Notes: generated from the sequence alone by a model not told the origin. A stretch of DNA of 64,000 bases from Thermoplasmata archaeon (GCA_030037955.1 JASHPT010000012.1:2429-66428); one strand, 5' to 3'. Positions 1,726-17,387 are shown, counted from the first letter of the stretch. A program made the numbers and translations.

Positions 1726-2514
1726 ATGGCTTCGCCGAAGGAGACCCTGGCGGAAGGGATCGACCGCTCCTGGCTCCAACGGCAGGCCCAGAGTGATCCC
1801 GTCGCACATGCCTGGGCTCTGTGGGATATCGACCACGAGCCGGGCCGGTTCCGATTCGTCTCCCGGCTCCGGCAGGGTGTGACGGTCGGATACCTGCTCA
1901 TCTGGTACGCCGGAGACGTGCCCCGGGCCCACTGGATCAGCGACGAACTCGACGATGGGCTCCTCGCGCTCGGCCTCCCGCTTCCGCCGGTACTCGCGTA
2001 TGTGCCCGAGCGGGTCGCCTCGGCCGTCCAGGAGCGACTCGGTGCGCGCCGGTCGACACCGATGGACGTCCTCGTCTGTTCCGGCCGCACCGTGACGCCG
2101 CCGGACCCCCGGGTCCGCCGGCTCAGCCCGGCCGACTCGGCGGTTCTCTCGGAGTTCCTCGCCACGCATCCGGACACGGAACTCGGAGGCTTTGACCCCC
2201 AGGATCTCGATCATCGACCCGCCTGGGGCGCTTTCGAGGCCGGCCGTCTGGTGGCGGTAGCTCGGGCGGCCGTGCGCTTGCCGGCTGTCTGGATCGTGAC
2301 CGGGGTCTTCACCGACCCGGCCCACCGCGGGCGGGGCCTGGGCAGGGAGGTCACGACCGCAGTCACCACCGCCGCCTTGGCCGCCGGCGCCCGCGCGGCG
2401 CTCTACGTCCGTGCGGACAATGCCCCGGCGAAGACCATCTACCGGGAGATCGGCTACGAGCCCGTGGGCCGACGGGTGTTGATCGACGCCCGGCCCGAGG
2501 CTCCAGCATTTTGA
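1726..2514 (+). CDS. GNAT family N-acetyltransferase
   Basis: C-terminal acetyl-CoA-binding motif ...HRGRGLGREVTTAVTTAALAAGARAALYVRADNAPAKTIYREIGYEP. Its stop overlaps the downstream start as ATGA. Confidence 0.75.
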   Translation: MASPKETLAEGIDRSWLQRQAQSDPVAHAWALWDIDHEPGRFRFVSRLRQGVTVGYLLIWYAGDVPRAHWISDELDDGLLALGLPLPPVLAYVPERVASAVQERLGARRSTPMDVLVCSGRTVTPPDPRVRRLSPADSAVLSEFLATHPDTELGGFDPQDLDHRPAWGAFEAGRLVAVARAAVRLPAVWIVTGVFTDPAHRGRGLGREVTTAVTTAALAAGARAALYVRADNAPAKTIYREIGYEPVGRRVLIDARPEAPAF

Positions 2515-4229
2515 CCCGGGGCTCTCTCCCCGTCCCACCGACGATGTCTACGAACACCGAGGTCGCGAAAATCTTCTACGCGATCGCTGACCTGCTCGAC
2601 CTCCAGGGCGAGCGCTTCAAGCCGGAGGCCTACCGCCGGGCCGCGCGGTCCCTCGAATCCCTGGGCGAGGACCTCCGCAAGGTCGCCCAACGAGGCGGCC
2701 TCGACCAGATCCCGGGTATCGGAGAAGCGCTCCGGGAGAAGATCCTCGAGTACCTGCGCGACGGCAAGATCGGCTACTACGAGAAGCTCCAGGAGGCGTT
2801 TCCCCCCGGCGTCCTGGAGCTGATGCGGATCCCGGGAATCGGGCCGAAGACCACCGGTCGATTCTACCTGGAGCTCCACCTCGACAGTCCGGCTGCGCTC
2901 GCGCAAGCCATCGAGGAGGGCCGGCTCACCGGCCTGGCCGGCTTCGGGCCCAAGAAGATCGACAACCTGCGGGAGGCTCTCCGCGCCCGAACTTCCGCGG
3001 CACCGGCGGCCCGCACCCCCCTCGGGCCGGCGTGGCGACTGGCTCGCTCGATCGTCGAGGAGCTGTCCCGTCGGACCCCGGTCCATGACATCCTCGCGGC
3101 CGGGAGCCTGCGTCGGTGCCGAGAGACCGTCGGCGATCTCGATATCCTCGCCACGTCGGACCGGCCTCCCGAGACGATCGCGGAGTTCACGCGCCTTCCG
3201 ACCGTGCGGACGATCGTCGTGCAGGGAGACACCAAGGCGACCGTGATCCACGAGCCCGGCATCCAGGTCGACCTGCGCGTGGTCGAGCCGGCGAGCTTCG
3301 GAGCGGCGCTCCAGTACTTCACCGGCTCGAAGGATCACAACATCGAGCTGCGGTCGCTCGCCCGGGACCGCGGCCTCAAGATCAACGAATACGGCGTGTT
3401 CCGTGGCGAGGCCCGCGTCGCCGGCGCCAGCGAGGCCGAGGTCTACGCGAGCCTCGGCCTCGACTGGATGCCGCCCGAGATCCGGGAGAACCAGGGAGAG
3501 ATCGAGGCGGCGCAGCGCCACGAGGTTCCGGCCCTCGTCGAAACCCGTCACCTTCGAGGCGAGCTCCACCGCCACGTCCCGGTCGCCCTCAGCGAGACCT
3601 GGCTCCGAGGGGTCGTCGCCGAGGCGCGCCGTCTCAGCCTCCGGTACCTGGGACTCGTGCTTCCGCTGGGGTCGAGCCCCCGGTCCGCTGCGGCCCGCGT
3701 CTCGGAGCTTCGAGCGCTGTGGCCCCGGGCCGACCCGGGCCCGCTCCGGCTGCTCGTCGGCCACGAGGTCGAGCTCGGTGCCGAGGGGATGACGAACGTG
3801 CCGCCGGTGGATTACCGGGTCGCGGTGCCGGCAGCCGGGTCGTCCCCGGCGCCGCCTCGCTCCCCGACCCCGGTGCCGGTCCGGTTTGTCGGCCATCTGC
3901 GGTTCGCCCCAGAGGGCGGCGAGGTGCCGCGGGAAGTGGTGATGCCCTGGATCGAGTGGTGCCGGGCCCACGGAGTGGCCCTGGAGATCACGCCGGCCGG
4001 CGCGAGCGACGGGCTGGACGCGGCGGCCGCGCGATGGGCTCAGGACGCCGGCGTGAGTCTCGTGCTGAGCGCCGGCCCGGACGACCTGACCGAACTTGAT
4101 CTCACGACCGGCCGGGCCCGACGCGGGTGGGTGCGCGTCGAACAGGTCGTCAATTCACGGGACGACGCGGCTGGATCGACCGAGGGGGCGGGGTCGGTCC
4201 GGCGGCGGCGGTCGGCCGTCCGAAACTGA
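2511..4229 (+). CDS. polX: DNA polymerase X family protein (Pol beta-like N-terminal domain + C-terminal PHP phosphoesterase domain)
   Basis: HhH/8-kDa-domain signature KIFYAIADLLDLQGERFKPEAYRRAARSLE, IPGIGEALREKILEY and GIGPKT motifs, and nucleotidyltransferase GDLDIL. Length of 572 aa. The start may be 2511 (ATGA overlap) or 2544 (MSTNTEV). Confidence 0.85.
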   Translation: MTRGSLPVPPTMSTNTEVAKIFYAIADLLDLQGERFKPEAYRRAARSLESLGEDLRKVAQRGGLDQIPGIGEALREKILEYLRDGKIGYYEKLQEAFPPGVLELMRIPGIGPKTTGRFYLELHLDSPAALAQAIEEGRLTGLAGFGPKKIDNLREALRARTSAAPAARTPLGPAWRLARSIVEELSRRTPVHDILAAGSLRRCRETVGDLDILATSDRPPETIAEFTRLPTVRTIVVQGDTKATVIHEPGIQVDLRVVEPASFGAALQYFTGSKDHNIELRSLARDRGLKINEYGVFRGEARVAGASEAEVYASLGLDWMPPEIRENQGEIEAAQRHEVPALVETRHLRGELHRHVPVALSETWLRGVVAEARRLSLRYLGLVLPLGSSPRSAAARVSELRALWPRADPGPLRLLVGHEVELGAEGMTNVPPVDYRVAVPAAGSSPAPPRSPTPVPVRFVGHLRFAPEGGEVPREVVMPWIEWCRAHGVALEITPAGASDGLDAAAARWAQDAGVSLVLSAGPDDLTELDLTTGRARRGWVRVEQVVNSRDDAAGSTEGAGSVRRRRSAVRN

Positions 4230-5563: not shown

Positions 5564-6469
5564 CTACGCCGCGATCATCCGCTCGAGGGCTTGGCGAGCC
5601 CGGGCGGCGACGGGCCCGGGCACGTCGATGACGTAGCGCATCTGGGCCAGGGAGTCCCGGACATCCGTGAGGTCGATCTCCTTCATGTACGGGCAGATCG
5701 CCCCGCGGGAGAGTGGGAGAAACTGGGTCGTAGGGTTGAGCTTCTGCATCCGGTGCAGGATCCCGACCTCGGTGGCGACGATCACCGTCGGGGCTCGTGT
5801 CTCCTCCGCGTAGCGGACCATCCCGTCGGTCGACAGGACCCGGTCGACATGCTCGAGCGTCCCGCTGGCGCAGCCACACTCAGGATGCGCGATGACCGGG
5901 GCGCCCGGATGGGCCTGCCGGGCCGTCTCGATCTCCTCCGGCCGCATCTTGGCGTGGACCGGACAGTCCCCGGTCCAGAGGTGCATCTTCCGGCCGGTCT
6001 TCCGGCGGACGTAGTCGCCGAGGAACATGTCCGGAAGGAACAGGATCTCCTGGTCTGCCGGCAGGGAGCTCACGGTCTTGATCGCGTTCGAGCTGGTGCA
6101 GATGAAGTCCGACTCCGCCTTCACGTCGGCCGAGGTGTTGATGTACGACACGACGACGGCGCCGGGATGTTGCGCCTTCCAACTGCGGAGCTGCTCGGCC
6201 GTGATCGAGTCGGCGAGACCGCACCCGGCCTTGAGGTCCGGCAGCAGGACGGTCTTGGTCGGGTTCAGGATCTTCGCCGTTTCGGCCATGAACTGGACGC
6301 CGGCGAAGAGGATGACGGGCCGGTCCGTCTCCGCCGCCTTCCGGGACAGGTAGAGCGAGTCGCCGACGAAGTCGGCGACCTCCTGCACTTCCGGCAGCTG
6401 GTAGTTGTGTGCCAGGAGGACGGCCCTTCGCTCCTCCTTGAGCCGGTGGATCTCGTCCTCGAGTGACAT
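5564..6469 (-). CDS. nadA: quinolinate synthase NadA
   Basis: Product (M)SLEDEIHRLKEERRAVLLAHNYQ...FAGVQFMAETAKILNP...DCPVHAKM...AHPEC is full-length NadA. The ATG start at 6469 is preferred over the ORF-track GTG at 6505, because a CTTAAG promoter box sits ~36 nt upstream of 6469. Confidence 0.9.
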   Translation of the reverse strand: MSLEDEIHRLKEERRAVLLAHNYQLPEVQEVADFVGDSLYLSRKAAETDRPVILFAGVQFMAETAKILNPTKTVLLPDLKAGCGLADSITAEQLRSWKAQHPGAVVVSYINTSADVKAESDFICTSSNAIKTVSSLPADQEILFLPDMFLGDYVRRKTGRKMHLWTGDCPVHAKMRPEEIETARQAHPGAPVIAHPECGCASGTLEHVDRVLSTDGMVRYAEETRAPTVIVATEVGILHRMQKLNPTTQFLPLSRGAICPYMKEIDLTDVRDSLAQMRYVIDVPGPVAARARQALERMIAA

Positions 6470-6528
6470 GGCCGGACCCGAGGTCCAAGGACGACGGAAC
6501 GGCACTTAAGCCGAGTGTGGGGGCCGCG

Positions 6529-7419
6529 TTACCTCGACCCACGGGGAGGGACGACCACCAGGTGGAACGGTAGGGCCGGGGCCGAGTGGGTCAGGCTCCC
6601 GAGGCTCGCGGCATCGGCGCCCGAGCGCGCGTAGGCCGCCACGTTCGTCCCATCGATCCCGCCCGAGACCTCGAGGTCGGCTGTGGCGCCCGCGGGGAAG
6701 CGGCGGATCGACCGGATGAGCCGATGGGCCGCTCGCGGGGAGAGGTTGTCGATCAAGAGGCTCCGCGCGCCGGCTCCCAGAGCCGCCCGAGCCTGAGCCA
6801 AGGAGTGGACCTCGACCTGGAGCGGCCGGCCATCGACCCGCCGTCGTCCCCGTCGGACCGCCTCGGCGACGGGGACGACGGCCAGGTGGTTCCCCTTGAT
6901 CAGTACCGCATCGGAGAGGTCTCGTCGATGCGGCTCGCCGCCACCGTGCACGACGGCAGCCTTCTCCAGGTCCCGGAGCCCGGGAAGCGTTTTCCGGGTG
7001 GCCCGGACCCGGAACCCGGGCCGGACCATCCGCGCGGCGCGGACCGCCCGCTCCGTCGCCGTCGCCACGCCCGAGAGATGCATCAGGAAGTTGAGGAGGG
7101 TCCGCTCGACCGACAGGATCCGGCGGAGGTCGCCCCGGAGCTCGAGCACGACGCTCCCCCGGTGCACCCGAGCGCCGTCGACGAGCCGGGCCGTGGCGCG
7201 GAGTCCGCCGATCCGTGCGATCATCTCGGCGACCTGCACGCCCGACAGCACCCCGGGGGCCTGGGCGATCACCTGCGCCCGAACGTCGAGTCGGCCCGGG
7301 AAGAGGGCTCGCGTCGTGGCGTCGTGGGTCCACCGGTCCTCTCGCAACGCCTCCCGGAGCTTCCCGGCCGTTCCCGGCGGGAGGCCGGGAGGTCCCGGCT
7401 CAGGACGCCGGTGCCGCAT
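6529..7419 (-). CDS. nadC: nicotinate-nucleotide pyrophosphorylase (quinolinate phosphoribosyltransferase) NadC
   Basis: Motifs ...LSGVQVAEMI...RKTLPGLRDLEKAAVVHGGGEPHRRDLSDAVLIKGNHL...LEVSGGI. Directly upstream of nadA on the same strand. Confidence 0.85.
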   Translation of the reverse strand: MRHRRPEPGPPGLPPGTAGKLREALREDRWTHDATTRALFPGRLDVRAQVIAQAPGVLSGVQVAEMIARIGGLRATARLVDGARVHRGSVVLELRGDLRRILSVERTLLNFLMHLSGVATATERAVRAARMVRPGFRVRATRKTLPGLRDLEKAAVVHGGGEPHRRDLSDAVLIKGNHLAVVPVAEAVRRGRRRVDGRPLQVEVHSLAQARAALGAGARSLLIDNLSPRAAHRLIRSIRRFPAGATADLEVSGGIDGTNVAAYARSGADAASLGSLTHSAPALPFHLVVVPPRGSR

Positions 7420-9835
7420 GTTCTCCCTCCCGCTCGGTCACCCGTCGCTCCAGGGAGCGGTAATCCTCGAGCAGGTCGGGGCGGAGGCGGGACAGGGAGC
7501 GGCGGTCGAGGTCGCGGATCTTGTCGCGCGCGAGGGCCAGGTCGTCCCGGGCCAGGTCGACCTCGGCGAGACGCAACACGACCTCGACCTCGTCGCCCGG
7601 GAGGTGCTCGTCCCGGAACAGTTGCCCGGCCTGCTCGAGCGCCCGCGTGGCGAGCTCGAGTTCGCCGGCGAGGAGGTGCAGCTTCCCTTCGTTGAGGTAG
7701 GTCTGGCCGAGACCGAACCGGTCTCCGATGCCCTCCAGGAGCTCCCGCGCGGTCTGGTTGTGCTTCTCCGCCTCGGGAAGCCGCTGCTGGACCCGTTCCA
7801 GGTCCCCGATGTTGAGGTGCGCCCAGCCCAGGCGTCGCAGGTCATGCGCCCGGTCCGCGAGCTCGGCGGCGATCACGAGCTCCTCGAGTCCCTGGTCCAC
7901 GTCCCCATGCTGGCTCAGCACCACGCCGTGACAGAGGTAGGCGTACGATGCCTCGGCGTTGTCCCCGAGGTCGCGCAGCGTCTCGCCGGCCTCGTGGTAG
8001 AGTGCGAGCGCTTCGACCTCCCGGCCGGGCGTCATCGACAGGACGTTCGCCAGTCGGACGCGTTGGATAGCGACCTCGTGCGGGTTCCCGGTCGCTTCGG
8101 CGGCGGAGAGCGCTTCCTGCTGGTGCTCGAGGGCCTCGGCGTACTCGGCCCGATAGAACAGAATCTCCCCGCGGAGGCGGAGACCGTAGACCTTCAGCAA
8201 CGGGTCGCTCGCGGCCTCGATGCTCGCGAGCGAGTCCCGCATCGTCCGGTCGGCCTCGTCCCAGCGGCCCTGGTCGGCCAGGATCCGTCCCAGGAGCAGT
8301 CCGAACAGCGCACGCTGGTCCGCCGTCGCCGTCGTGGGAACGGTCGGCCGTGCGAGGGTCTCGCGAAGCAGCTGCTCCGCCCGTCGGAGCTCCCCGACCC
8401 GGTCCCGTTCGAGCGCGATCTGCAGGATCAGGTCGAGTTCCCCGGCAAGATCGTCCGGGAACGCGCGCTGGTGGGCCTCGAGGGCCTGCTCGTAGTGGAC
8501 CAGCGCCACGTTCGACGTGTGCGCCCGGCGAGCGAACTCGGCCGCGCGTCGGTTGAAGTCGACGGCCTGAGCGTCGGCGCGGCCCAGATAGTAGTGTCGT
8601 GCGAGGGAGAAGATCGTCGCGAGGTCGGCGGCGCCGATCGATTCCGTCGCCTCACCGACCCGACGGTGCAGGAGCCTAAGCCGCGGCCCCGTGAGACGGG
8701 AATACAGCTCGAACCGGACATCCTCCCGGAGGAACTCGAAGACCTCGCCGGGCTTCTCCCGAAGGATCCCGAGGTCGACGAGACGCTCCACCTCTTCGGC
8801 GAGCGCCTCCTCCTCCTGGCCGGTCGCCTTGAGCAGGAGCGGGAACGAGACCTCGCGGCCGGCGACCGCCGCCAGGGTCAGGAGCTTGAGCTCGGGCTCG
8901 GTGACCTCCTGGAGGAGGGCCCGTGGCTCGAGAGCGAGCCGACGGTCCTCGTCCCCGCGGGAGGATCCGCGCACCGCCGCCTCGCGTCCGCGGATGAGCT
9001 GTTCGAGGAGCACCGGCACGCCACCGGTCGCCTCGAACCAGCGGCTGACCTCGGCCGCGTGGACCTCGCGCTTCGGGTCGACCCAGCGGATGAACTCCGG
9101 GACCTCCCGCTCGGTGAAGGGGCGGAGGGTCAGGCGCTCGGCCTGACCGGCTTTGACCCACTCCTCCAGCGACGTCGCGAGCTGGGCCGGCCATTGGGCC
9201 GCGGGAAGCGCGGTGGCGAACACCCACAGCGGCCGGTCGGCGAGCTTCGGGACCAGGAAGTCCAGGAACTCCACGGTGGCAGGGTCGACGAACTGCAGGT
9301 CGTCGATGGCGAGGAGCACCGGCCCCGACCGCGCGGCGAGCAGCAGCGGCTCGGCAAAGCCTTCGAAGAGGCGCTGCCGGCTCGACCGCAGGTCACCGGC
9401 ACCGTCGCTCGACGAGAGCAGGTGGGCGGCCAGCGGCGGAAGGTCGGTCCGGCCGTGCTCGGCCTCCGGCAGGAAACCGATCGGTACGACGGGGGCGCTG
9501 GCAACCCCGGCCACCTGCGCGAGGGAGGCCGGCGCCTCGTCGCCTCCCCGCGCCGCTGCCTCCTCGTCCGCCTGCGGCCTCAGGATCGCTTCCTGGAGCA
9601 CGAGGAACGGGGGCGGGTTCTCGAGCGAGACGGCCCGGGCGTGGAACACCCGGAACCCGCCCCGCTCGCTCTCCTCCACGAGGGCGGCGAAGAACGAGGA
9701 TTTGCCGACGCCGTTGGTCCCTTCCAGCACCGTGAGGCCGCCGGCGCCGCCTCGGGCATTCTCCCGACGGCGGAGGATCGCGTTCCAGACCTCCACGCGG
9801 CCGATGGGGGGGATCGAAGAGGGCCGGGCCTGCAT
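7400..9835 (-). CDS. AAA_16-type P-loop ATPase fused to TPR repeats (STAND-like NTPase), paralog 1
   Basis: Walker A LEGTNGVGKSSFFAAL near the N-terminus and Walker B VLLAIDDLQFVD, followed by ~500 aa of TPR-like helical repeats. No HTH or obvious effector domain. A TATA-like gtatatga at 9864-9871 lies ~30 nt upstream of ATG 9835. Confidence 0.8.
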   Translation of the reverse strand: MQARPSSIPPIGRVEVWNAILRRRENARGGAGGLTVLEGTNGVGKSSFFAALVEESERGGFRVFHARAVSLENPPPFLVLQEAILRPQADEEAAARGGDEAPASLAQVAGVASAPVVPIGFLPEAEHGRTDLPPLAAHLLSSSDGAGDLRSSRQRLFEGFAEPLLLAARSGPVLLAIDDLQFVDPATVEFLDFLVPKLADRPLWVFATALPAAQWPAQLATSLEEWVKAGQAERLTLRPFTEREVPEFIRWVDPKREVHAAEVSRWFEATGGVPVLLEQLIRGREAAVRGSSRGDEDRRLALEPRALLQEVTEPELKLLTLAAVAGREVSFPLLLKATGQEEEALAEEVERLVDLGILREKPGEVFEFLREDVRFELYSRLTGPRLRLLHRRVGEATESIGAADLATIFSLARHYYLGRADAQAVDFNRRAAEFARRAHTSNVALVHYEQALEAHQRAFPDDLAGELDLILQIALERDRVGELRRAEQLLRETLARPTVPTTATADQRALFGLLLGRILADQGRWDEADRTMRDSLASIEAASDPLLKVYGLRLRGEILFYRAEYAEALEHQQEALSAAEATGNPHEVAIQRVRLANVLSMTPGREVEALALYHEAGETLRDLGDNAEASYAYLCHGVVLSQHGDVDQGLEELVIAAELADRAHDLRRLGWAHLNIGDLERVQQRLPEAEKHNQTARELLEGIGDRFGLGQTYLNEGKLHLLAGELELATRALEQAGQLFRDEHLPGDEVEVVLRLAEVDLARDDLALARDKIRDLDRRSLSRLRPDLLEDYRSLERRVTEREGEHAAPAS

Positions 9836-9863
9836 CGTCCTCGCCCCTTATCGGCGGGGCCGG

Positions 9864-9871
9864 GGTATATG
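9864..9871 (-). promoter_or_regulatory. TATA-like element (tcatatac on minus strand) upstream of AAA-TPR paralog 1
   Basis: Lies in the 56-nt spacer between the two AAA-TPR genes, ~30 nt upstream of ATG 9835. This suggests paralog 1 can be transcribed independently. Confidence 0.45.
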
Positions 9872-9891
9872 AGGGTAGCTCGGCGGAGCGC

Positions 9892-12315
9892 TCAGCGGCC
9901 CGGACGCGCGGCCTTGCGCGAGCGCGGGAGCCGCCCGCGAAGCTCCTCGTAATCGTGGGTCAGGTCCGGACGAAGTTCGGAGAGCCGACGACGCTCCAGC
10001 TCCTCGACCTGCTCGCGCACCGCCGGCCACTCCTCCCGGGTGGCCGCGACCTCGGCGAGGCGCAGCAGCACCTCGACGATGTCGGCCTCCATGTTCTGTT
10101 CCTCGAAGATCGCGAGCGCCTCCCGGAGCGCGTGCTCGGCCCCGTCGGGGTCGTTCCTCGACCGGCGGATCTTGCCTTCGTAGACATAGGTCTGCGCGAG
10201 CCCGAATCGGTCCCCGACCCGTTCGAGCTGCTCCCGCGCCTGCCGGTTATGGGCATCCGCCTCGTCGAGGCGATTGAGGTCGTGGAGGGTGTCGGCGATG
10301 TCGAAGAGTGCCCAGCCGGTACGGCGGGGATCGTTCGCCTCCCGGGCCAGCCGGAGCGCGTGGTGGAACTCCGTGAGCGTCTTCTCGGGGTCGTGGGTCA
10401 TGCCGAGGGCCACGCCGATGTAGATGTGGGCCTCGGCCGCCTCGGCCTTCTCCCCCATGCGCTCAAGCTCGGTCGCGGCCTTCCGCAGTCGCTCGATGGA
10501 CGGCTCGAGCTCGCCGGGCCGCATCGTGAGCGACCTGGCGTACCGGACCTCCTCGAGCAGCGTCTCCCGGGGGTCTCCCATCTCCTTCGTGGTCGCGAGA
10601 CCCTCGGCGTGGTAGCGGAGGGCCTCCGGGTAATCTCCCCGGAAATAGGCGAGCTCGCCGGCGAGCCGGACGGCCACGAGCCGGACCGGCGCCTCCCAGT
10701 CCTGCTCGGCGCGCGAGCGGATGAGCTCCCCCACCAGGCGGTCCGCCTCTCCCCACCGGCCCTGGTCCGACCGCACGAGCGCCAGGTAGAGGGGGAGCAG
10801 GTCCCGCTGCTGGGGCGTCGCCGCCGCCATCATGTCGGAACGGTCCGTGACCTGGCGCAGCGCCCGCTCGGCCCGGTCGAACTCGCCCACCCGGCGGAGC
10901 TGCCGGACCATCTCGAACAGAAGCTCGATCTCCTCGCCGAGCTCCACCGGCCGGCTGCGACGATGCGCCTCCAGCGCCCGCTCGAGATGCACGAGCGCCG
11001 TCCCCGGCAGATAGGCATCCGCCGCGAACCGCGCGGCAAGTCGGTTGTACTCGAGCGACTTTGCGTCGACGCGCCCGAGATGGAAGTGCCGGGCGAGGGC
11101 GAAGACGGAATCGACCTCCTTGGGGGCGCCGGCTTCGATCGCCTCCGCGACACGACGGTGGAGGATCCGGCGTCGGGTGTCCGTGAGGCCGTTGTAGAGC
11201 TCCTCCCGCAGGTCGTCGCGCGGGAACTCGAAGACCTCGTTCTCCGACTCCCGGAGGAGTCCCTGATGCACGAGGCGTTCGACGGCCTCGGCGAGCTCCT
11301 CCTCGTTCTCGTCGGTGGTCCGCGTCAGGATCGAGAACCGGGCCTTCGGGCCCAGGACGGCCGCGATCGTGAGCACTCGCCGGTCGCTCTCCGAGATCGA
11401 CCGGATCTGGTGCCGTAGCTGGCCCACGGGGTCCTCCGGCTCGGCGCTCTCCGAAGGAGCCCGGGCGGGTGAGGCGTGGATGAGCTGCTCCAGGAAGAGC
11501 GGGTTCCCCGAGGTCTGGGCGAACCAGCGGTGCAGCTGCTCGGGCGGGGTGACCCGGTCCGGCCGGGCCCAGCGGACGAAGTCCACGACCTCGCGCTCGC
11601 TCAGCGGCCGGACGGTGAAGCGGCGGGCCCCGGCGGCGACGAGACGCTCGAGACCGGCCCGGCCCCGGGGCTCCAGGCTCTCGAACGGCGGCGTGGTGCC
11701 GACCCACCAGATCCGCCGGGCCTCGAGCCGAGGCGCCACCTGCTCGAGGAACTCGATCGACCCTTCGTCCGCCCAGTGCAGGTCCTCGACGGCCACCAGG
11801 AGCGGCACCTGGTCGGCGAGGGCGAACATCGGCCCAGCCATCTCCTCCATCAACTGGACCCGGTCGGCCTGGAAACTGTCCCCGAGGGCCACCGACCGGA
11901 ACAGCGAGGACGATTCCCCGGCCCCGCCGGGTCGGAGTACGGCGGCCGGCGCGGCTCCGACGCCGAGCGCGACCGTCGGAGACACGATCGGTTGGGCGAC
12001 GTACGGGAAGGCCAGCGAGGAGGGGGTGGTGGCGCCGAGCGCCGCCGCCTCCCGGTCCACCGCCCGAACCACCGCCCGGATCAGCTGGAACGGCGCGGGA
12101 GCCTGCGCCTCGGAGCGGGCGGTGACGAGCCGAAAGTTGTGGAGCTGGCTTTCCTGTCCCAGGGCGGCCAGGATCGTGGACTTTCCGACGCCGGTCTCCC
12201 CCTCCAAGAGGGTGATCCCGCCGCGACCCCCGAGGACCTCCTCCCGACGATGGACCAGCGACTGGTAGAGGTCGAGGCGACCGATGAGCGGCCGGTCCGC
12301 CCGCGACGACTCCAT
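9892..12315 (-). CDS. AAA_16-type P-loop ATPase fused to TPR repeats (STAND-like NTPase), paralog 2
   Basis: The true start is ATG at 12315 (MESSRADRPLIGRL...). The 1180-aa ORF 9892..13434 on the track is a read-through artefact. Walker A LEGETGVGKSTILAAL and Walker B LLVAVEDLHWAD. Same architecture as paralog 1. Confidence 0.8.
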   Translation of the reverse strand: MESSRADRPLIGRLDLYQSLVHRREEVLGGRGGITLLEGETGVGKSTILAALGQESQLHNFRLVTARSEAQAPAPFQLIRAVVRAVDREAAALGATTPSSLAFPYVAQPIVSPTVALGVGAAPAAVLRPGGAGESSSLFRSVALGDSFQADRVQLMEEMAGPMFALADQVPLLVAVEDLHWADEGSIEFLEQVAPRLEARRIWWVGTTPPFESLEPRGRAGLERLVAAGARRFTVRPLSEREVVDFVRWARPDRVTPPEQLHRWFAQTSGNPLFLEQLIHASPARAPSESAEPEDPVGQLRHQIRSISESDRRVLTIAAVLGPKARFSILTRTTDENEEELAEAVERLVHQGLLRESENEVFEFPRDDLREELYNGLTDTRRRILHRRVAEAIEAGAPKEVDSVFALARHFHLGRVDAKSLEYNRLAARFAADAYLPGTALVHLERALEAHRRSRPVELGEEIELLFEMVRQLRRVGEFDRAERALRQVTDRSDMMAAATPQQRDLLPLYLALVRSDQGRWGEADRLVGELIRSRAEQDWEAPVRLVAVRLAGELAYFRGDYPEALRYHAEGLATTKEMGDPRETLLEEVRYARSLTMRPGELEPSIERLRKAATELERMGEKAEAAEAHIYIGVALGMTHDPEKTLTEFHHALRLAREANDPRRTGWALFDIADTLHDLNRLDEADAHNRQAREQLERVGDRFGLAQTYVYEGKIRRSRNDPDGAEHALREALAIFEEQNMEADIVEVLLRLAEVAATREEWPAVREQVEELERRRLSELRPDLTHDYEELRGRLPRSRKAARPGR

Positions 12316-12338
12316 CGATGTACGATGGGTCTCTCCGT

Positions 12339-13550
12339 CTATTTCAGTCCGGGGTGCCCGGCGGGGACGAACGGGAGCGGAACGACCGTGGCCCCCACCG
12401 GCCGCCCCCGGATATCGACCGAGAGGCTCGAGCCGACCGACGCCACCGGGGTGGCGACATACGCGAGGGCGATGCCTCGTTGCAGGGTCGGAGAGAAGCC
12501 CCCGCTCGTGACCGAGCCGACGGGCTGGGCTCCCGAGAGCACGACCTGACCGTGGCGCGGGATCGCGGACGGCTCCGCGAGGGTCAGGCCCACCCACCGG
12601 ACCGTGGGCCCGGCGGCTCGCTGCTTCTCGAGCGCGTCGCGACCGACGAAGGCGTGGTCGAATTCGATGAAGCGGTCCTGACCGGCCTCGAGCGGCGTGC
12701 GGTCCTCGTGAAAGTCCTGTCCCGAGAGCAGGTAGCCCTTCTCGAGCCGCAGCGTGTCCCGCGCTCCGAGGCCGCAGGGTCGCACCCCCGCCCCGACCAG
12801 GCGCTCGGCGAGGGCATCGGCCTGCGCGCCCGGAACGAACAGCTCGTAGCCGAGCTCTCCGGTGTATCCCGTCCGCGACACCCAGGCGGCCGTGGCGAGG
12901 GGCTGCGGAAACGCATCGTCGAGCAGATGTCCGCCCGACCCGCCCGGTACCGGGGTCCACGGAAAGTAGGCTGCGTGGAACGGCCGGAGCTCCGCGAGCG
13001 ACCAGCCCCAGAGACGCTCCAGGGTCGTGCGGGACGCCGGGCCCTGGACCGCGAGGATTGCCACGGCGCCGTTGTGCGCCTCGATGTCGGTGTCGGGACG
13101 CCGATGCTCCTGCAGGAGGTCCCGGATCTTCTCGGCGCGGGCGGCGTTCGGGACCGCCACGAACGCCGGAGGCGCCTCGCCGGCGCCCGTGTCGGCACGC
13201 GTGAAGATGAGGTCGTCGACGATCGCGCCGTCCGCATCCAGCAGGAACGTGTACCGGCACTGACCGGGCGAGAGCTTCGCGGCATTGGCGGTCGTCCGTC
13301 GGGACAGCAGCGCCGGCCCGCTCGCGCCGCGGACGGTCAGGATGCCCATGTGCGACACATCGAAGAGACCGACGGACGAGCGCACGGCCCGGTGCTCCTC
13401 CACGATGCTGCCGTAGTGGAGGGGCATCTCCCACCCCGCGAAGGGCACCATCTGTCCGTGGTGTCGGAGGTGGAAGTCGTAGAGCGGAGTGCGACGGAGC
13501 GGCGCCGGGCGGGGCGGGGGCGCCTCCAGGATCGTCGGCCCCTGCGTCAC
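12339..13550 (-). CDS. gcvT: glycine cleavage system T protein (aminomethyltransferase)
   Basis: N-terminus (M)TQGPTILEAPPPRPAPLRRTPLYDFHLRHHGQMVPFAGWEMPLHYGSIVEEHRAVRSSVGLFDVSHMG is typical GcvT. GTG start. 4-nt overlap with the purP stop. Confidence 0.9.
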   Translation of the reverse strand: MTQGPTILEAPPPRPAPLRRTPLYDFHLRHHGQMVPFAGWEMPLHYGSIVEEHRAVRSSVGLFDVSHMGILTVRGASGPALLSRRTTANAAKLSPGQCRYTFLLDADGAIVDDLIFTRADTGAGEAPPAFVAVPNAARAEKIRDLLQEHRRPDTDIEAHNGAVAILAVQGPASRTTLERLWGWSLAELRPFHAAYFPWTPVPGGSGGHLLDDAFPQPLATAAWVSRTGYTGELGYELFVPGAQADALAERLVGAGVRPCGLGARDTLRLEKGYLLSGQDFHEDRTPLEAGQDRFIEFDHAFVGRDALEKQRAAGPTVRWVGLTLAEPSAIPRHGQVVLSGAQPVGSVTSGGFSPTLQRGIALAYVATPVASVGSSLSVDIRGRPVGATVVPLPFVPAGHPGLK

Positions 13551-14704
13551 GTCACGACCTCGGCGAGCCGCCCCTCGGCGAGAGCGGTTCGGATCTCGAT
13601 CGCGATCCGGCGTCCGGAGCTCATCGGTCCCCTCCAGAGCGCGTTGCCGTACGGGTGGCCGAGGGAGAGGTGGATGTTGGTGCCGCCGCCGATCCGCGCG
13701 GCGACGTCGAAGACGAAGGCCTTTCCGTCCCGGTCGATGCAGGTCTGGAGCGTGAACGGACCCAGAATCCCGGGAGGTGCCCGGCTCCGGGTGACCTCGA
13801 CGAACCGCTCCCCGTAGTCGAAGATCTCTTCCAGCAGCGATTCGCGCACGGTCAGGGTCCCGTGACCGACGACCGTGTAGTGCGGGATCGCATGCGAGCC
13901 CCGGATCTCGAGCTGCTGGGCCGCCGGCAATCGGACCAGGCCGTCCAGCGAACTTTCCCGTCGCTCGTCCACTCCGAGCAGCTCGAGGCCGTCCTCCCGG
14001 GGCACCAGGGGGGAGAAGAAGAAATTGAAATTGAACACCGGGCCCAGCACGTACTGCTCGATCCGCGCCTGCTCGAGGTCCGCCGCGGCGATCGTACCGG
14101 CGGCGATCAGCGAGTCGCTCTTCCGCTGGTACTCCTCGAAGCTCGCGGCGGTGAAGAAGCCGCGTTCCAGCCGGCGGGTGGCGTGCGGAAGCTTGACCAT
14201 CGCGAGCGACTCGATCTCCGGCGGCGACGGAATCCGCTGCGGGGTCGGGATCCCGGCGGCGGCCAGGAGGGCATAGTAGTTGTCCCGCTCGGTGCGCTCC
14301 TCGATCCTCAGGAGATTCCGGGAGCCGACCAGCGGGACACGGAAGGAGTCTTCGAGCACGTCCAGCGAAACGTAGGAGCTCAGGGCCCGGTTCGGAACCA
14401 GGAGGACCCCGTGGTCCCGAAGCCGCGCCTGGCTCTCCGGGGTTGCGGCGTCCGCGAACTTCGGAAAGCTCCAGACCTCGTCGACGCAGCCTCGCGTCAC
14501 GTGGCCGGCCGCATCGCGGTGGGCCCGATAGTAGACCGAGTAGGTACGGTCCCGGCCCTTCTGCGCGAGTACGAGGGTGCGAAAGCCCTCTTCGACCGCG
14601 CCATCGGCGATGTCCAGGGCGGAGTGGGAACCGATCGCGCCGATGACCGGCGGGTTCGGATACGCGTGGGCCAGAGACTGGAGTTCCGACCGCGGGAGGA
14701 CCAT
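13547..14704 (-). CDS. purP: 5-formaminoimidazole-4-carboxamide ribonucleotide synthetase PurP (archaeal ATP-grasp FAICAR synthetase)
   Basis: 385-aa ATP-grasp protein with strong full-length resemblance to archaeal PurP (MVLPRSELQSLAHAYPNPPVIGAIGSHSALDIADGA...). A CTTAAG box lies 25-30 nt upstream of the ATG. Confidence 0.8.
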   Translation of the reverse strand: MVLPRSELQSLAHAYPNPPVIGAIGSHSALDIADGAVEEGFRTLVLAQKGRDRTYSVYYRAHRDAAGHVTRGCVDEVWSFPKFADAATPESQARLRDHGVLLVPNRALSSYVSLDVLEDSFRVPLVGSRNLLRIEERTERDNYYALLAAAGIPTPQRIPSPPEIESLAMVKLPHATRRLERGFFTAASFEEYQRKSDSLIAAGTIAAADLEQARIEQYVLGPVFNFNFFFSPLVPREDGLELLGVDERRESSLDGLVRLPAAQQLEIRGSHAIPHYTVVGHGTLTVRESLLEEIFDYGERFVEVTRSRAPPGILGPFTLQTCIDRDGKAFVFDVAARIGGGTNIHLSLGHPYGNALWRGPMSSGRRIAIEIRTALAEGRLAEVVT

Positions 14705-14718
14705 TGGGGGTCCGGACC

Positions 14719-16914
14719 TTACAGGAGCTTAAGCGCTCGGGCCACGCGCTCCGGCGTCAGCGGGAGTTCGAAGACTCGCGTACCGGTCGCATCCGCGACG
14801 GCGTTGGCAACGGCCGCAGGCACCGGAATGATCGGCGGCTCGCCGATCCCTTTGGCGCCGAACGGCCCGGCACCGGCAAACCCCTCGATCAGGTCGACGT
14901 GGATCGGCGGCGCGTCCCGGATCCGGGGCAGCCGGTAGTCCAGGAGTCCGGGGTTCAAGAGCCGGCCGTCGGGCGTCCACATCATCTCCTCGGACAGCGC
15001 CGTGCCCAGCCCCATCACGACCCCGCCCTCGACCTGCGCCTCGACCGCCGGTCGGTCCACGGCGGTGCCGACGTCCTGGAAGGCGGCGTAGCGTACGATG
15101 CCGATGTGGCCGGTCTCCCGGTCCACGGCGACCTCGACCAGATGGACGGAGGCGGCGAAGTCGTTGTACGGATAGACCGTCCCCTCCAGCACCCGCGACG
15201 CATCGACCTTCTTCTCCGCCCCGTAATGCTTCCCGTGAGCCTCGAGGCCCCCGGCGGCCCGCTCCGCCGGCGTCAGCAGGTCGACCAGCTTCTGCCGGCG
15301 ACGGCCCGAGACGACCAGGACCTGCCCGTTCTTCGTCTCCAAGCGGACCTGCGGCGCCCCGACCCGAGTCGCCAGCGTCTTCTCGAGCGCTCGGGCCGCT
15401 TTCTCCACGGCCTGCCCCAGGGCCGCCAGGGTCCGGCTCCCGTAGACCCCGGAATCGAACGGCGCCGTGGCCGTGTCCCCGTACTGGATCCGGATCGCAT
15501 TCGCGGGGAGACCCAGCACCCGCTGCGCCACCACCGAGAGGCCGCGAACGACACTCCCGTTGCCGATCTCCCGCTCTCCCTCGAGGATCACGAGGCCATC
15601 CGGCTGGAGGAACAGGCGGGCCTCTCCGCCGGCTCCCACGCCCGTCGACCAGAAGCCACAGGCGACGCCGATGCCGTGCCCGGCCGGAATTCCGGTTCTC
15701 CAGACGGCGGCCGTGCGGGCCGCGGCCTCGAGGCCGGCTTCGAGGCCGAAGGGACCGACCGGCTGGTCGTAGGCGGTTCGGTCGTTCTCGCGCCACGCAT
15801 GGATCTTTCGAAACTCGATGGGGTCGGCGCCGAGGCGACGTGCCAGGCCGTCGATATGCGACTCGAGGGCGAAGACGGATTGCGGTGCGAACGGGGCCCG
15901 GTGGGGCCCGAACGGCGGCTTGTTCGTTCGGAGGGCGTAGCCCTCGATGTCGTAGGCCTCGGTGCGGTAGGGTCCCAGCAGGAAGCCAATCGAGTACCCG
16001 ACGGCAAAGTCCCGGCCGGGGAGGGACGCGCCGGTGTCCAGGAGCAGGCGCACACGACGTGCAACGATCCGGCCGCGGGCCACGGCCGTGTCGAGTCGGA
16101 TGACTGCGGGCAGGGTCGTGCGGCCGAGTTCGAACTCCTCGGCGTAGGTCAGGGCCAATTTGACCGGGCGCCCGCTCGCGACCGCCAGAAGGAGGGCGTA
16201 CGGTTCGATGAACGCCGACCCCTTGCCCCCGAAGCCCCCGCCGACCCAGCTCCCCTCGACGAGGAGCTTGGCCTCGGGAATTCCCAGGACGGAGGCTACG
16301 TCTTCCCGCAGTCCGAAGGGTGTCTGGGTCGAGGTGCGGATACAGAACGTGCCGTCCCGGATCTCGCCGAGGCAGGCGTGCGGTTCGAGCGCCACCTGAT
16401 GGACGCCGCTGGTACGATACGTCTCCGAGTGGACGAGCTCCGCGGTCCGGAACTTTCCGTCCACATCCCCGTGACGGGCATGCACGTGGCCCACCACATG
16501 CGGGTCATCCGCCGCCGCCGCGGAAGGCCACTCTGGAAAGATGTCCTCGATGCGGGCGTCGACCCGAAGGCTCTCGACCTCCACGGCAACGGCGGCGGCG
16601 GCCCGACGAGCCTGCGCGAGGGTCTCGGCCGCCACGGCGGCGACCGGTTCGCCCCGATAGCGGATCTCCTGGAGAGGGAACACGGGCCGCTCCACCTCGA
16701 GCGCGGCTTTCGGGAGCAGGGTGCGCAGGTCGTCCGGGCCGACCACGGCGACCACTCCGGGCATCTTGCGGGCGCCGGCCAGGTCCATGTGCACGATCCG
16801 GCCGTGAGCCACCGGCGAGCGGACCAGAGCGGCCCACAGCATCCCGGGCGCCTCGAGGTCGGTGCCGTACTCGAGCGCCCCACGGGCCTTCGGCTCCGCG
16901 TCGGAGCGCATCAT
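14719..16914 (-). CDS. xanthine dehydrogenase family molybdopterin-binding large subunit (CoxL-like)
   Basis: The true start is the MMRSDAEPKARGALEYGTDLEAPGMLWAALVRSPVAHGRIVHMD... methionines, which overlap the coxS stop as ATGA. Aldehyde oxidase/XDH a/b-hammerhead plus molybdopterin-binding domains. The substrate is not determinable from sequence. Confidence 0.85.
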   Translation of the reverse strand: MMRSDAEPKARGALEYGTDLEAPGMLWAALVRSPVAHGRIVHMDLAGARKMPGVVAVVGPDDLRTLLPKAALEVERPVFPLQEIRYRGEPVAAVAAETLAQARRAAAAVAVEVESLRVDARIEDIFPEWPSAAAADDPHVVGHVHARHGDVDGKFRTAELVHSETYRTSGVHQVALEPHACLGEIRDGTFCIRTSTQTPFGLREDVASVLGIPEAKLLVEGSWVGGGFGGKGSAFIEPYALLLAVASGRPVKLALTYAEEFELGRTTLPAVIRLDTAVARGRIVARRVRLLLDTGASLPGRDFAVGYSIGFLLGPYRTEAYDIEGYALRTNKPPFGPHRAPFAPQSVFALESHIDGLARRLGADPIEFRKIHAWRENDRTAYDQPVGPFGLEAGLEAAARTAAVWRTGIPAGHGIGVACGFWSTGVGAGGEARLFLQPDGLVILEGEREIGNGSVVRGLSVVAQRVLGLPANAIRIQYGDTATAPFDSGVYGSRTLAALGQAVEKAARALEKTLATRVGAPQVRLETKNGQVLVVSGRRRQKLVDLLTPAERAAGGLEAHGKHYGAEKKVDASRVLEGTVYPYNDFAASVHLVEVAVDRETGHIGIVRYAAFQDVGTAVDRPAVEAQVEGGVVMGLGTALSEEMMWTPDGRLLNPGLLDYRLPRIRDAPPIHVDLIEGFAGAGPFGAKGIGEPPIIPVPAAVANAVADATGTRVFELPLTPERVARALKLL

Positions 16915-17387
16915 TGAACGGCCTTCCGCGCCAAGGCCACCGCCCGCTCGATCGCCCGGTAGCCGGTGCACCGGCACAGGTTCCCTTCCAGGCCGTCGAC
17001 AAGCGACTCCACGTCCGGTGGGCTTTTGCTCCGGCCGAGCTGGGCCGCGAGCGCCACGACAAATCCGGGCGTGCAATAGCCACACTGCACGGCCCCGGCC
17101 TCGGCAAAGGCCTTGATGACTGCCTGACCGATCGGTACCGCCGCGACGCCCTCGATGGTGGTCACGGGCTCGTCACCCACCTCTCGGGAGAGGAGCAGGC
17201 AGGAGAGCGTCGGCTCGCCGCCCACGAGCACCGTGCAGGCGCCGCAGTCCCCGGTCCGGCAGCCCTCCTTCGTGCCCTTGAGGCCGGCGCGCCAGCGGAG
17301 CGTATCGAGCAGCCGCTCCGCGTCCGGGACCGACGCAAAGCGTCGGCTCTGACCGTTGATGTGGAGCGCCAGCGCCGCGTCGGTCAT
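16911..17387 (-). CDS. (2Fe-2S)-binding small subunit of molybdenum hydroxylase (CoxS-like)
   Basis: 158 aa with two 2Fe-2S motifs: CRTGDCGAC and CGYCTPG...CRCTGY. It is the C-terminal part of the fused 648-aa ORF on the track. Confidence 0.85.
   Translation of the reverse strand: MTDAALALHINGQSRRFASVPDAERLLDTLRWRAGLKGTKEGCRTGDCGACTVLVGGEPTLSCLLLSREVGDEPVTTIEGVAAVPIGQAVIKAFAEAGAVQCGYCTPGFVVALAAQLGRSKSPPDVESLVDGLEGNLCRCTGYRAIERAVALARKAVQ

Follow-up and report, generated by a model that had tools for sequence, protein, structure and literature searches.

We analysed two adjacent genes, here called S1 and S2, in DNA of a Thermoplasmata archaeon (GCA_030037955.1 JASHPT010000012.1:2429-66428). 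The window is the whole stretch of 64,000 nucleotides (nt), and positions are counted from its first letter. Each gene encodes a protein in which a P-loop ATPase of the STAND type is followed by an array of tetratricopeptide repeats (TPRs). We think it probable, on balance, that they belong to a Thermoplasmata-specific family of effector-less STAND proteins of about 800 amino acids (aa) that is vertically inherited, heads a STAND-nadC-nadA gene string, has been duplicated in tandem in the window, and serves as a nucleotide-gated scaffold or switch that senses through its TPRs.

Genomic position in related archaea

We compared 90 loci by tblastn with the window proteins; the counts given here refer to non-redundant loci. 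The related loci come from Thermoplasmata, Ca. Lutacidiplasma silvani, Lutacidiplasmatales and UBA184 species-representative genomes. The nadC gene lies directly downstream of the family gene in 65 of the 70 loci with downstream sequence, and gcvT lies directly upstream in 64 of the 77 with upstream sequence. In eight of the remaining loci gcvT is present with 0.2-1.6 kb apparently inserted, and the other five lack gcvT. Of the five loci without nadC, two belong to a distant lineage (L007, L009) and three are extra copies elsewhere in their genomes (L012, L063, L089). Deeper relatives, with a STAND protein only about 33-38% identical to those in the window (L092, L094, L095), retain the STAND-nadC-nadA order, and it is the upstream neighbor that differs, being an ABC transporter gene in L092 and a divergent M1 peptidase gene in L094. 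A single family gene is present in 65 of 83 loci.

Given these fixed gcvT and nadC neighbors across relatives, the position directly ahead of nadC-nadA is ancestral for the order, and the genes were not inserted there. An earlier note, made from the sequence of the window alone, had described the pair as inserted between nadAC and gcvT/purP and had left it to synteny to tell a core gene from an island. The comparison contradicts an insertion and identifies an ancestral core position that mostly holds one copy, with the pair confined to one sub-lineage. A mobile island was likewise rejected: the GC content of the pair region equals that of its flanks, no tRNA gene was found within 30 kb of the pair, and no significant direct or inverted repeats flank it. 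In five contigs that encode an identical S1 protein, taken from Thermoplasmata metagenome-assembled genomes, the neighboring genes are all housekeeping genes (PolD, a xanthine-dehydrogenase-family enzyme, PolX, an acetyltransferase, MarR and an MFS transporter).

The window itself is from a Lutacidiplasmatales (TMEG) archaeon, and the family has been passed on vertically through this order and neighboring lineages. Lutacidiplasmatales genomes from acidic soils, SubAcS15-31 among them, have a GC content of about 69% and a size of about 2.1 Mb (PMC9287336). The GC content of the window, about 70%, is in line with this, and SubAcS15-31 itself has the pair, with 83% identity in S1. All named members of the close family, at roughly 530 bits and above, are from Thermoplasmata. 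A distant 802-aa relative in L093, about 25% identical, has an uninformative genomic context.

Domain architecture and predicted fold

S1 (7400-9835, minus strand) has an ATG start and encodes 811 aa, and S2 (9892-12315, minus strand) encodes 807 aa from an ATG inside a longer open reading frame (9892-13434). The two proteins have the same architecture and align over their full length, with 40% identity and 59% similarity in 808 aligned columns (E = 8e-170). The tandem of same-strand ATPase-TPR paralogues of about 810 aa that had been noticed earlier is therefore real. Both proteins pass the Pfam gathering cut-off of 32.6 bits for AAA_16 (PF13191, residues 10-205), S1 scoring 51.9 and S2 51.5 bits. 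With TPR_12 (cut-off 30.1) their scores are 57.1 and 62.7 bits, respectively. With TPR_MalT (PF17874, cut-off 45 bits), S1 falls below the cut-off at 39.8 bits and S2 is just above it at 45.9. In NCBIfam, a partial match to TOMM_kin_cyc spans only the ATPase-TPR core of that model, and a match to AfsR covers the TPR part only (48 bits against a cut-off of 1430).

Domains other than AAA_16 and TPR were found in neither protein by Pfam and NCBIfam, nor in the AlphaFold model of S1, in agreement with the earlier statement that both lack a helix-turn-helix (HTH) and an effector domain. An effector domain at one terminus is usual in STAND proteins, though not strictly defining. Here it is absent, with AAA_16 beginning at residue 10 and the TPR array extending up to a C-terminal helix. 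Pfam gave no match to PF00196 (the GerE/LuxR HTH), PF00486 or PF03704 (BTAD), and neither Pfam nor the model revealed an N-terminal ArsR-like winged HTH, as both proteins start with the NTPase domain. An identity as a LuxR or SARP regulator was rejected on the lack of such domains in Pfam and NCBIfam. An Orc1/Cdc6 identity was also rejected: neither database gave such a match at E <= 0.1, and the structural matches are STAND and TPR proteins.

The fold of S1 was predicted with AlphaFold2 from a 26-sequence family alignment (mean predicted local distance difference test score 84, predicted template modeling score 0.79). In this model, and with approximate boundaries on the minus strand, a Rossmann-like nucleotide-binding domain (NBD; 9116-9808) with a disordered insert at residues 87-134 is followed by a helical domain (HD; 8936-9115), a winged-helix domain (WHD; 8690-8935), an arm (8456-8689), a TPR array (7496-8455) and a C-terminal helix (7403-7495). 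The predicted WHD consists of helices and a beta-hairpin at residues ~313-380, in agreement with the full-length alignment to 6mfv, and the TPR array contains about nine helical hairpins (residues 405-780). The top match of the model to the Protein Data Bank (PDB) in Foldseek is the STAND protein PH0952 (6mfv; E = 4e-13, 754 aligned columns), ahead of LGN/Pins TPRs and MalT (8bob), and a profile search of PDB sequences likewise retrieved PH0952 and MalT, plus AfsR. The near-full-length match to PH0952, together with the AAA_16 and TPR matches, bears out the assignment of both proteins as a STAND-type P-loop NTPase joined to a TPR array.

Conservation between S1 and S2 is uneven. The WHD and arm are best conserved (48-50% identity), compared to 34-41% in the halves of the TPR array and 18% in the insert. 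The WHD helix that would face DNA bears the invariant glutamates E342, E343 and E347, which speaks against direct DNA binding. Near the C terminus, both proteins contain a near-invariant LRPDL motif (7472-7486 in S1, with R785, P786 and D787, and 9961-9975 in S2). This motif is kept across the whole family and occurs in a weaker form in an NBD-less paralogue described below.

Nucleotide-switch residues

Switch residues were compared in an alignment of the family with 26 AAA_16 relatives from bacteria and counted in 95 family members. The Walker A and Walker B strings quoted in the earlier note are exact. Walker A reads GTNGVGKSS in S1 (residues 39-47; 9695-9721, minus strand) and GETGVGKST in S2 (12175-12201, minus strand). 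Its lysine (K45 in S1), which both proteins have, is found in 94 of 95 family members and conserved in the bacterial relatives. Walker B reads LLAIDDLQ in S1 (residues 174-181; 9293-9316, minus strand), followed by the invariant D184, and LVAVEDLH in S2 (11776-11799, minus strand). The [ED]-D pair at positions 178 and 179, DD in S1 and ED in S2, is likewise present in 94 of 95 members and conserved in bacteria, E-D being the commonest form in the family (78/95). Three further elements are invariant in the family and shared by both window proteins: D184 (mostly D in the bacterial relatives), the GxP motif of the helical domain (G272 and P274, within TGGVPVLLEQL and TSGNPLFLEQL in the window copies) and H390, the last two being conserved in bacteria. 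The family thus very likely still binds nucleotide, judging from these motifs. One member, P0024, has GEVGIGTSS at Walker A, with threonine in place of the lysine, and EQLD at Walker B; its close relative P0026 retains the lysine.

Two residues that are invariant in the 26 bacterial relatives have a different fate in the family. The sensor-I arginine (position 210) is kept in 63 of the 95 members, and its loss is specific to the clade of the window and one sister clade. In S1 it is replaced by L210 in FATALP (9203-9220, minus strand) and in S2 by proline in VGTTPP (11686-11703, minus strand). The WHD histidine, which clamps ADP in other STAND proteins, is found at position 370 in only 1 of 95 members, with D in 41, R in 29 and E in 11. 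Both window proteins have arginine there, R370 of S1 lying in the winged-helix motif FEFLREDVRFELY (8702-8740, minus strand). As aligned, the putative gamma-phosphate-sensing and ADP-locking residues are altered in the family, most strongly in the two proteins of the window. Loss of the histidine together with replacement of the arginine suggests a weak hydrolysis-driven reset, and we infer a slow or non-hydrolysing switch from these changes.

Duplication history and selection

We placed 95 family proteins in a neighbor-joining tree with the distant lineage as root, and in this tree S1-type and S2-type proteins form sister clades. Both types are limited to L001, L006 and L014-L021, where they always occur as a tandem in the order S2-S1. 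The pair is therefore a lineage-specific tandem duplication in one sub-lineage that includes the organism of the window. Within that sub-lineage the tandem has been retained through divergence to 60% identity in S1 and 54% in S2.

Adjacent paralogues are not restricted to this clade. A second, independent pair clade occupies the same position between gcvT and nadC (L054, L060, L065, L072, L074, L088), with a slow-evolving upstream copy and a downstream copy on much longer branches. In the distant lineage, which we call lineage B (L007-L010, L091), a paralogue of 525-540 aa lies just upstream of the full gene (L007 8387-9976; L009 8364-9941; L091 6264-7886). It aligns to residues 317-795 of its neighbor with 31% identity and keeps the WHD, arm and TPRs while the NBD is absent. 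Adjacent pairing thus has at least three origins in this family, which gave pairs of two full copies, of a full and a fast-evolving copy, and of an NBD-less and a full copy. The earlier view of a duplicated effector-less pair as unusual is not borne out: most relatives have a single copy, the tandem is specific to one lineage, and comparable pairs have independent origins elsewhere in the family.

Purifying selection acts on both copies, with dN/dS between the closest orthologues at 0.03 in S1 and 0.08 in S2. These are the only values quoted, as dS is saturated (0.7-1.1) and the ratios of distant pairs are unreliable. S2-type proteins have undergone about 1.3-2 times more non-synonymous change.

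Promoter-like elements and neighboring genes

A TATA-like box, TCATATAC (9865-9872, minus strand), lies 30-37 nt upstream of the S1 ATG. All nine orthologous S2-S1 spacers have it at a conserved position while the rest of the spacer has diverged, and so the downstream copy does have a TATA-like box of its own, as the earlier note had proposed. The corresponding box of S2, TGAAATAGA (12338-12346, minus strand), lies 23-31 nt upstream of its ATG and overlaps the last codons and TAG stop of gcvT. Throughout the family (L001-L090), nearly every gene has an AT-rich box about 30-38 nt upstream in a background of about 70% GC, in the forms TAAATA(G), [CG]ATATA or TGAAATAG. Between 5.6 and 14.0 kb of the window, the S1 and S2 boxes are the only AT-rich heptamers (at least 6 A/T), and no AT-rich box of nadC or nadA was found between 5.6 and 9.8 kb. 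A conserved CCCAT element about 10-13 nt downstream of the family box is too closely spaced to it to be a transcription start, and may be a promoter-proximal element.

All four flanking genes were identified with Pfam on the minus strand, as had been claimed. Downstream of S1 are nadC, for quinolinate phosphoribosyltransferase (6529-7419; QRPTase_N/C), and nadA, for quinolinate synthase (5564-6505; NadA, E = 1.9e-115). Upstream of S2 are gcvT, for aminomethyltransferase (12339-13550; GCV_T and GCV_T_C), whose end is 23 nt from the S2 start, and purP, for archaeal FAICAR synthetase (13547-14704; DUF1246 and DUF1297), which overlaps gcvT by 4 nt. The nadC start (7419) lies inside the 3' end of S1, giving a 20-nt overlap (7400-7419), and a Shine-Dalgarno-like run, GGGAGGGAGA, is found within S1 just upstream of the nadC ATG (window 7400-7435). 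Overlaps of 11-26 nt between the STAND stop and the nadC start are present in most loci, 17 nt being most frequent, which suggests translational coupling. The overlap and the lack of an AT-rich box before nadC or nadA point to co-transcription: S1, nadC and nadA would form one transcription unit in which the STAND gene is promoter-proximal and nadA is the last gene. S2 has its own predicted start and may read through into S1-nadC-nadA.

The wider surroundings and the relatives offered several further observations. In the window, an imperfect AT-rich tandem, AAGAAATTGAAATTGAA, lies within the purP coding region (14019-14035) of this ~70% GC genome. A family X DNA polymerase gene (HHH_8, HHH_5, DNA_pol_B_thumb) at 2511-4229 on the plus strand is part of the same conserved gene string, as are genes of xanthine-dehydrogenase/CO-dehydrogenase-family enzymes (FAD_binding_5, Fer2, MoCoBD) found upstream of purP in related contigs (compare the region 14704-17085 of the window). 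In one sub-lineage an insert of about 1-1.5 kb separates gcvT from the STAND gene (L011, L027, L048, L050, L059 and L084; L081 is less clear); in L011 it contains a divergently oriented HTH_10 (HVO_A0563_N) regulator gene (6973-7731). A class I S-adenosylmethionine-dependent methyltransferase gene (Methyltransf_23/25/31/11/12) follows nadA in L095 (4446-5264), and one of the same kind directly follows the STAND gene in lineage B (L007 12539-13234; L009 12467-13264), so the ancestral order may have been STAND-nadC-nadA-methyltransferase. Of the extra copies away from the nadCA locus, that in L063 (5710-8379) belongs to the genome that also contributed L016. It shares 68% identity with S2, and its coding sequence is broken up over two frames, which would reflect a pseudogene or a long-read assembly error. 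The copy in L012 (8001-10385) follows a VapBC-like toxin-antitoxin pair, and that in L089 (5983-8367) is in an unrelated context.

Discussion

For the nucleotide-gated scaffold or switch that we favor, we infer the switching mechanism, the oligomerisation and the output as follows. The P-loop core would bind nucleotide, and the TPR/arm region would keep the protein autoinhibited, as in PH0952 and MalT. Binding of a ligand in the TPR groove, most likely of a peptide or part of a protein, would free the core and lead to oligomerisation. As there is no effector domain, the output would have to be the recruitment, sequestration or scaffolding of partner proteins. A hydrolysis-driven reset would probably be weak, S1 and S2 being more nucleotide-binding scaffolds than fast switches. 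After the duplication the two copies may co-assemble or read different ligands.

Several considerations weigh against this interpretation. The duplication tree is a simple neighbor-joining tree, and the saturation of dS limits the estimates of selection. Loss of the sensor-I arginine and WHD histidine was read from a sequence alignment rather than from a structural superposition, and other residues, such as R370, might compensate for it. Co-transcription with nadC-nadA would follow from the gene overlap and the absence of AT-rich boxes. The link to nadCA is not universal, as lineage B has its family gene between proS and a gene for a ubiE-like methyltransferase, and the link may reflect only a slow decay of gene order.

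The earlier note had also suggested an analogy with antiviral STAND (Avs) systems. On such a reading the TPR arrays of the pair would recognize a viral protein, and the oligomer would trigger abortive infection through an effector encoded elsewhere. The architecture does resemble Avs, in which a TPR-like sensor at the C terminus also follows a STAND NTPase, and paired sensor and helper STAND proteins occur in eukaryotic immunity, which may be counted as a precedent. PADLOC, however, gave only chance-level matches to S1 and S2 (LmuB, with E = 0.015 across 20 residues; a generic TPR model, with E = 6e-4; mad8, with E = 0.0035), all in short P-loop or TPR stretches, and both proteins differ from Avs in having no effector domain by Pfam, NCBIfam or the model. 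In about 70 species-level genomes the family gene has a fixed place with housekeeping genes on either side, and it is inherited vertically across the order, the pair has the composition of its flanks with no tRNA, repeats or mobile genes found nearby, and the strong purifying selection on both copies shows no sign of rapid diversification. Taken together, these results make an Avs-like role most improbable, and the analogy with defense does not hold. A transcription regulator that has lost its DNA-binding domain and works with a separate DNA-binding partner on nadCA, and possibly on gcvT-purP, is in our estimation quite unlikely. The nearest solved or curated relatives, PH0952, AfsR and MalT, are all transcription regulators. 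PH0952, from Pyrococcus horikoshii, is archaeal like S1 and S2 and shares with them the succession of NBD, HD, WHD, arm and TPR sensor; this putative transcription factor begins with an ArsR-like domain, and its resting state is autoinhibited by the arm and by contacts between NBD and sensor (PMC6468293). It is only 13% identical to S1, its WHD histidine is absent in this family, and its ArsR-like effector domain has no counterpart in S1 or S2. MalT and the LAL proteins, together with the SARP-type AfsR, also have an AAA_16 NTPase followed by a TPR_MalT/TPR_12 sensor and are the closest bacterial sequence relatives (25-32% identity, with the shared motifs EDLHWAD, GNP and LHRR). These bacterial relatives bear BTAD, LuxR or Trans_reg_C domains, whereas S1 and S2 have neither a LuxR HTH nor BTAD/Trans_reg_C and have replaced the sensor-I arginine and WHD histidine. 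The STAND gene does head the nadC-nadA string, and an insert lies beside it in the seven loci mentioned above, that of L011 holding an HTH_10 gene. Against this, Pfam and NCBIfam found no HTH in either protein, the putative DNA-contact helix of the WHD carries the three invariant glutamates, the HTH_10 neighbor is limited to a minority lineage, and apart from the TATA box and CCCAT, the promoter surroundings showed no conserved repeat resembling an operator.

The neighborhood could instead indicate a direct function in NAD synthesis, in which the STAND protein acts on the NadC or NadA protein (in assembly, stabilization or activity) or senses a metabolite of the pathway. This we regard as unlikely. 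It would account for the adjacency of STAND, nadC and nadA, which outlasts changes of the upstream neighbor and is still seen at about 33% STAND identity, for the overlap of the STAND stop with the nadC start in most loci and the Shine-Dalgarno-like run in the STAND 3' end, and for the absence of an AT-rich promoter-like box of nadC and nadA in the window. Yet in lineage B the family gene and nadCA are apart, additional copies are found in unrelated surroundings (L012, L063, L089), a gene order that is shared within a single order can be a legacy of history, and our literature searches found no precedent; nor did they return any paper on this STAND family. Turning from the neighbors to the pair itself, S1 and S2 might form an obligate hetero-oligomeric sensor and helper, in which ligand binding falls to one copy and the nucleation or propagation of the oligomer to the other. 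We see this as possible, though well short of probable. Paired NLRs such as NAIP-NLRC4 and the plant RGA4/RGA5, in which one partner senses and the other executes, are likewise adjacent or cooperating paralogous STAND proteins; they differ in that neither S1 nor S2 has an effector and no immune role is indicated. The repeated origin of adjacent pairs in the family fits such an arrangement, as does the better conservation of WHD and arm than of other parts between S1 and S2. So does the existence of bacterial polypeptides with fused AAA_16-TPR modules, such as the 3225-aa Actinomycetota protein MEX2556435.1, in which the same module is repeated in one chain and not in two genes. Identity with these proteins is only 20-29%, and some have cyclase or BTAD domains. 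Five examples from our searches (P0152, P0158, P0163, P0178 and P0180) are bacterial, 1700-3250 aa long, with two to four AAA_16-TPR modules per chain and in some cases a cyclase domain. An obligate pair is harder to square with the sufficiency of one copy in most species (65/83 loci), with the promoter-like box of each copy, and with the complete Walker motifs in both, neither being an obvious degenerate helper. A more ambitious proposal joins the last two: an order-wide effector-less STAND protein with a degenerate switch, encoded by the first gene of a nadC-nadA operon, would couple de novo NAD synthesis to a cellular signal at the protein level, and its pairs would be an archaeal counterpart of the sensor and helper of paired NLRs, used for housekeeping signaling and not for immunity. 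We mention it as a long shot.

The scaffold or switch that we favor belongs to a crowded field. A search with the family profile brings up about 336,000 cluster representatives when the threshold is E <= 0.001, and about 40,500 when it is E <= 1e-30; many proteins of about 800 aa at 22-27% identity are among them. Given this number of matches, the relatives of similar length and the fused giants, the effector-less AAA_16-TPR layout is common, and side-by-side modules recur. The locus is an ordinary, uncharacterized member of a very large AAA_16-TPR STAND superfamily. STAND and TPR architecture alone is no sign of defense, and it is synteny across relatives that separates a core gene from an island. 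Of more specialized interest is that an archaeal order keeps an effector-less STAND gene promoter-proximal to the genes that lead from quinolinate to nicotinic acid mononucleotide, and that the family repeatedly forms adjacent paralogue pairs while hallmark switch residues are lost. If the link to NAD synthesis or the pairing proved to be functional, this family would provide a tractable example of the role of effector-less STANDs, which number thousands of prokaryotic proteins.

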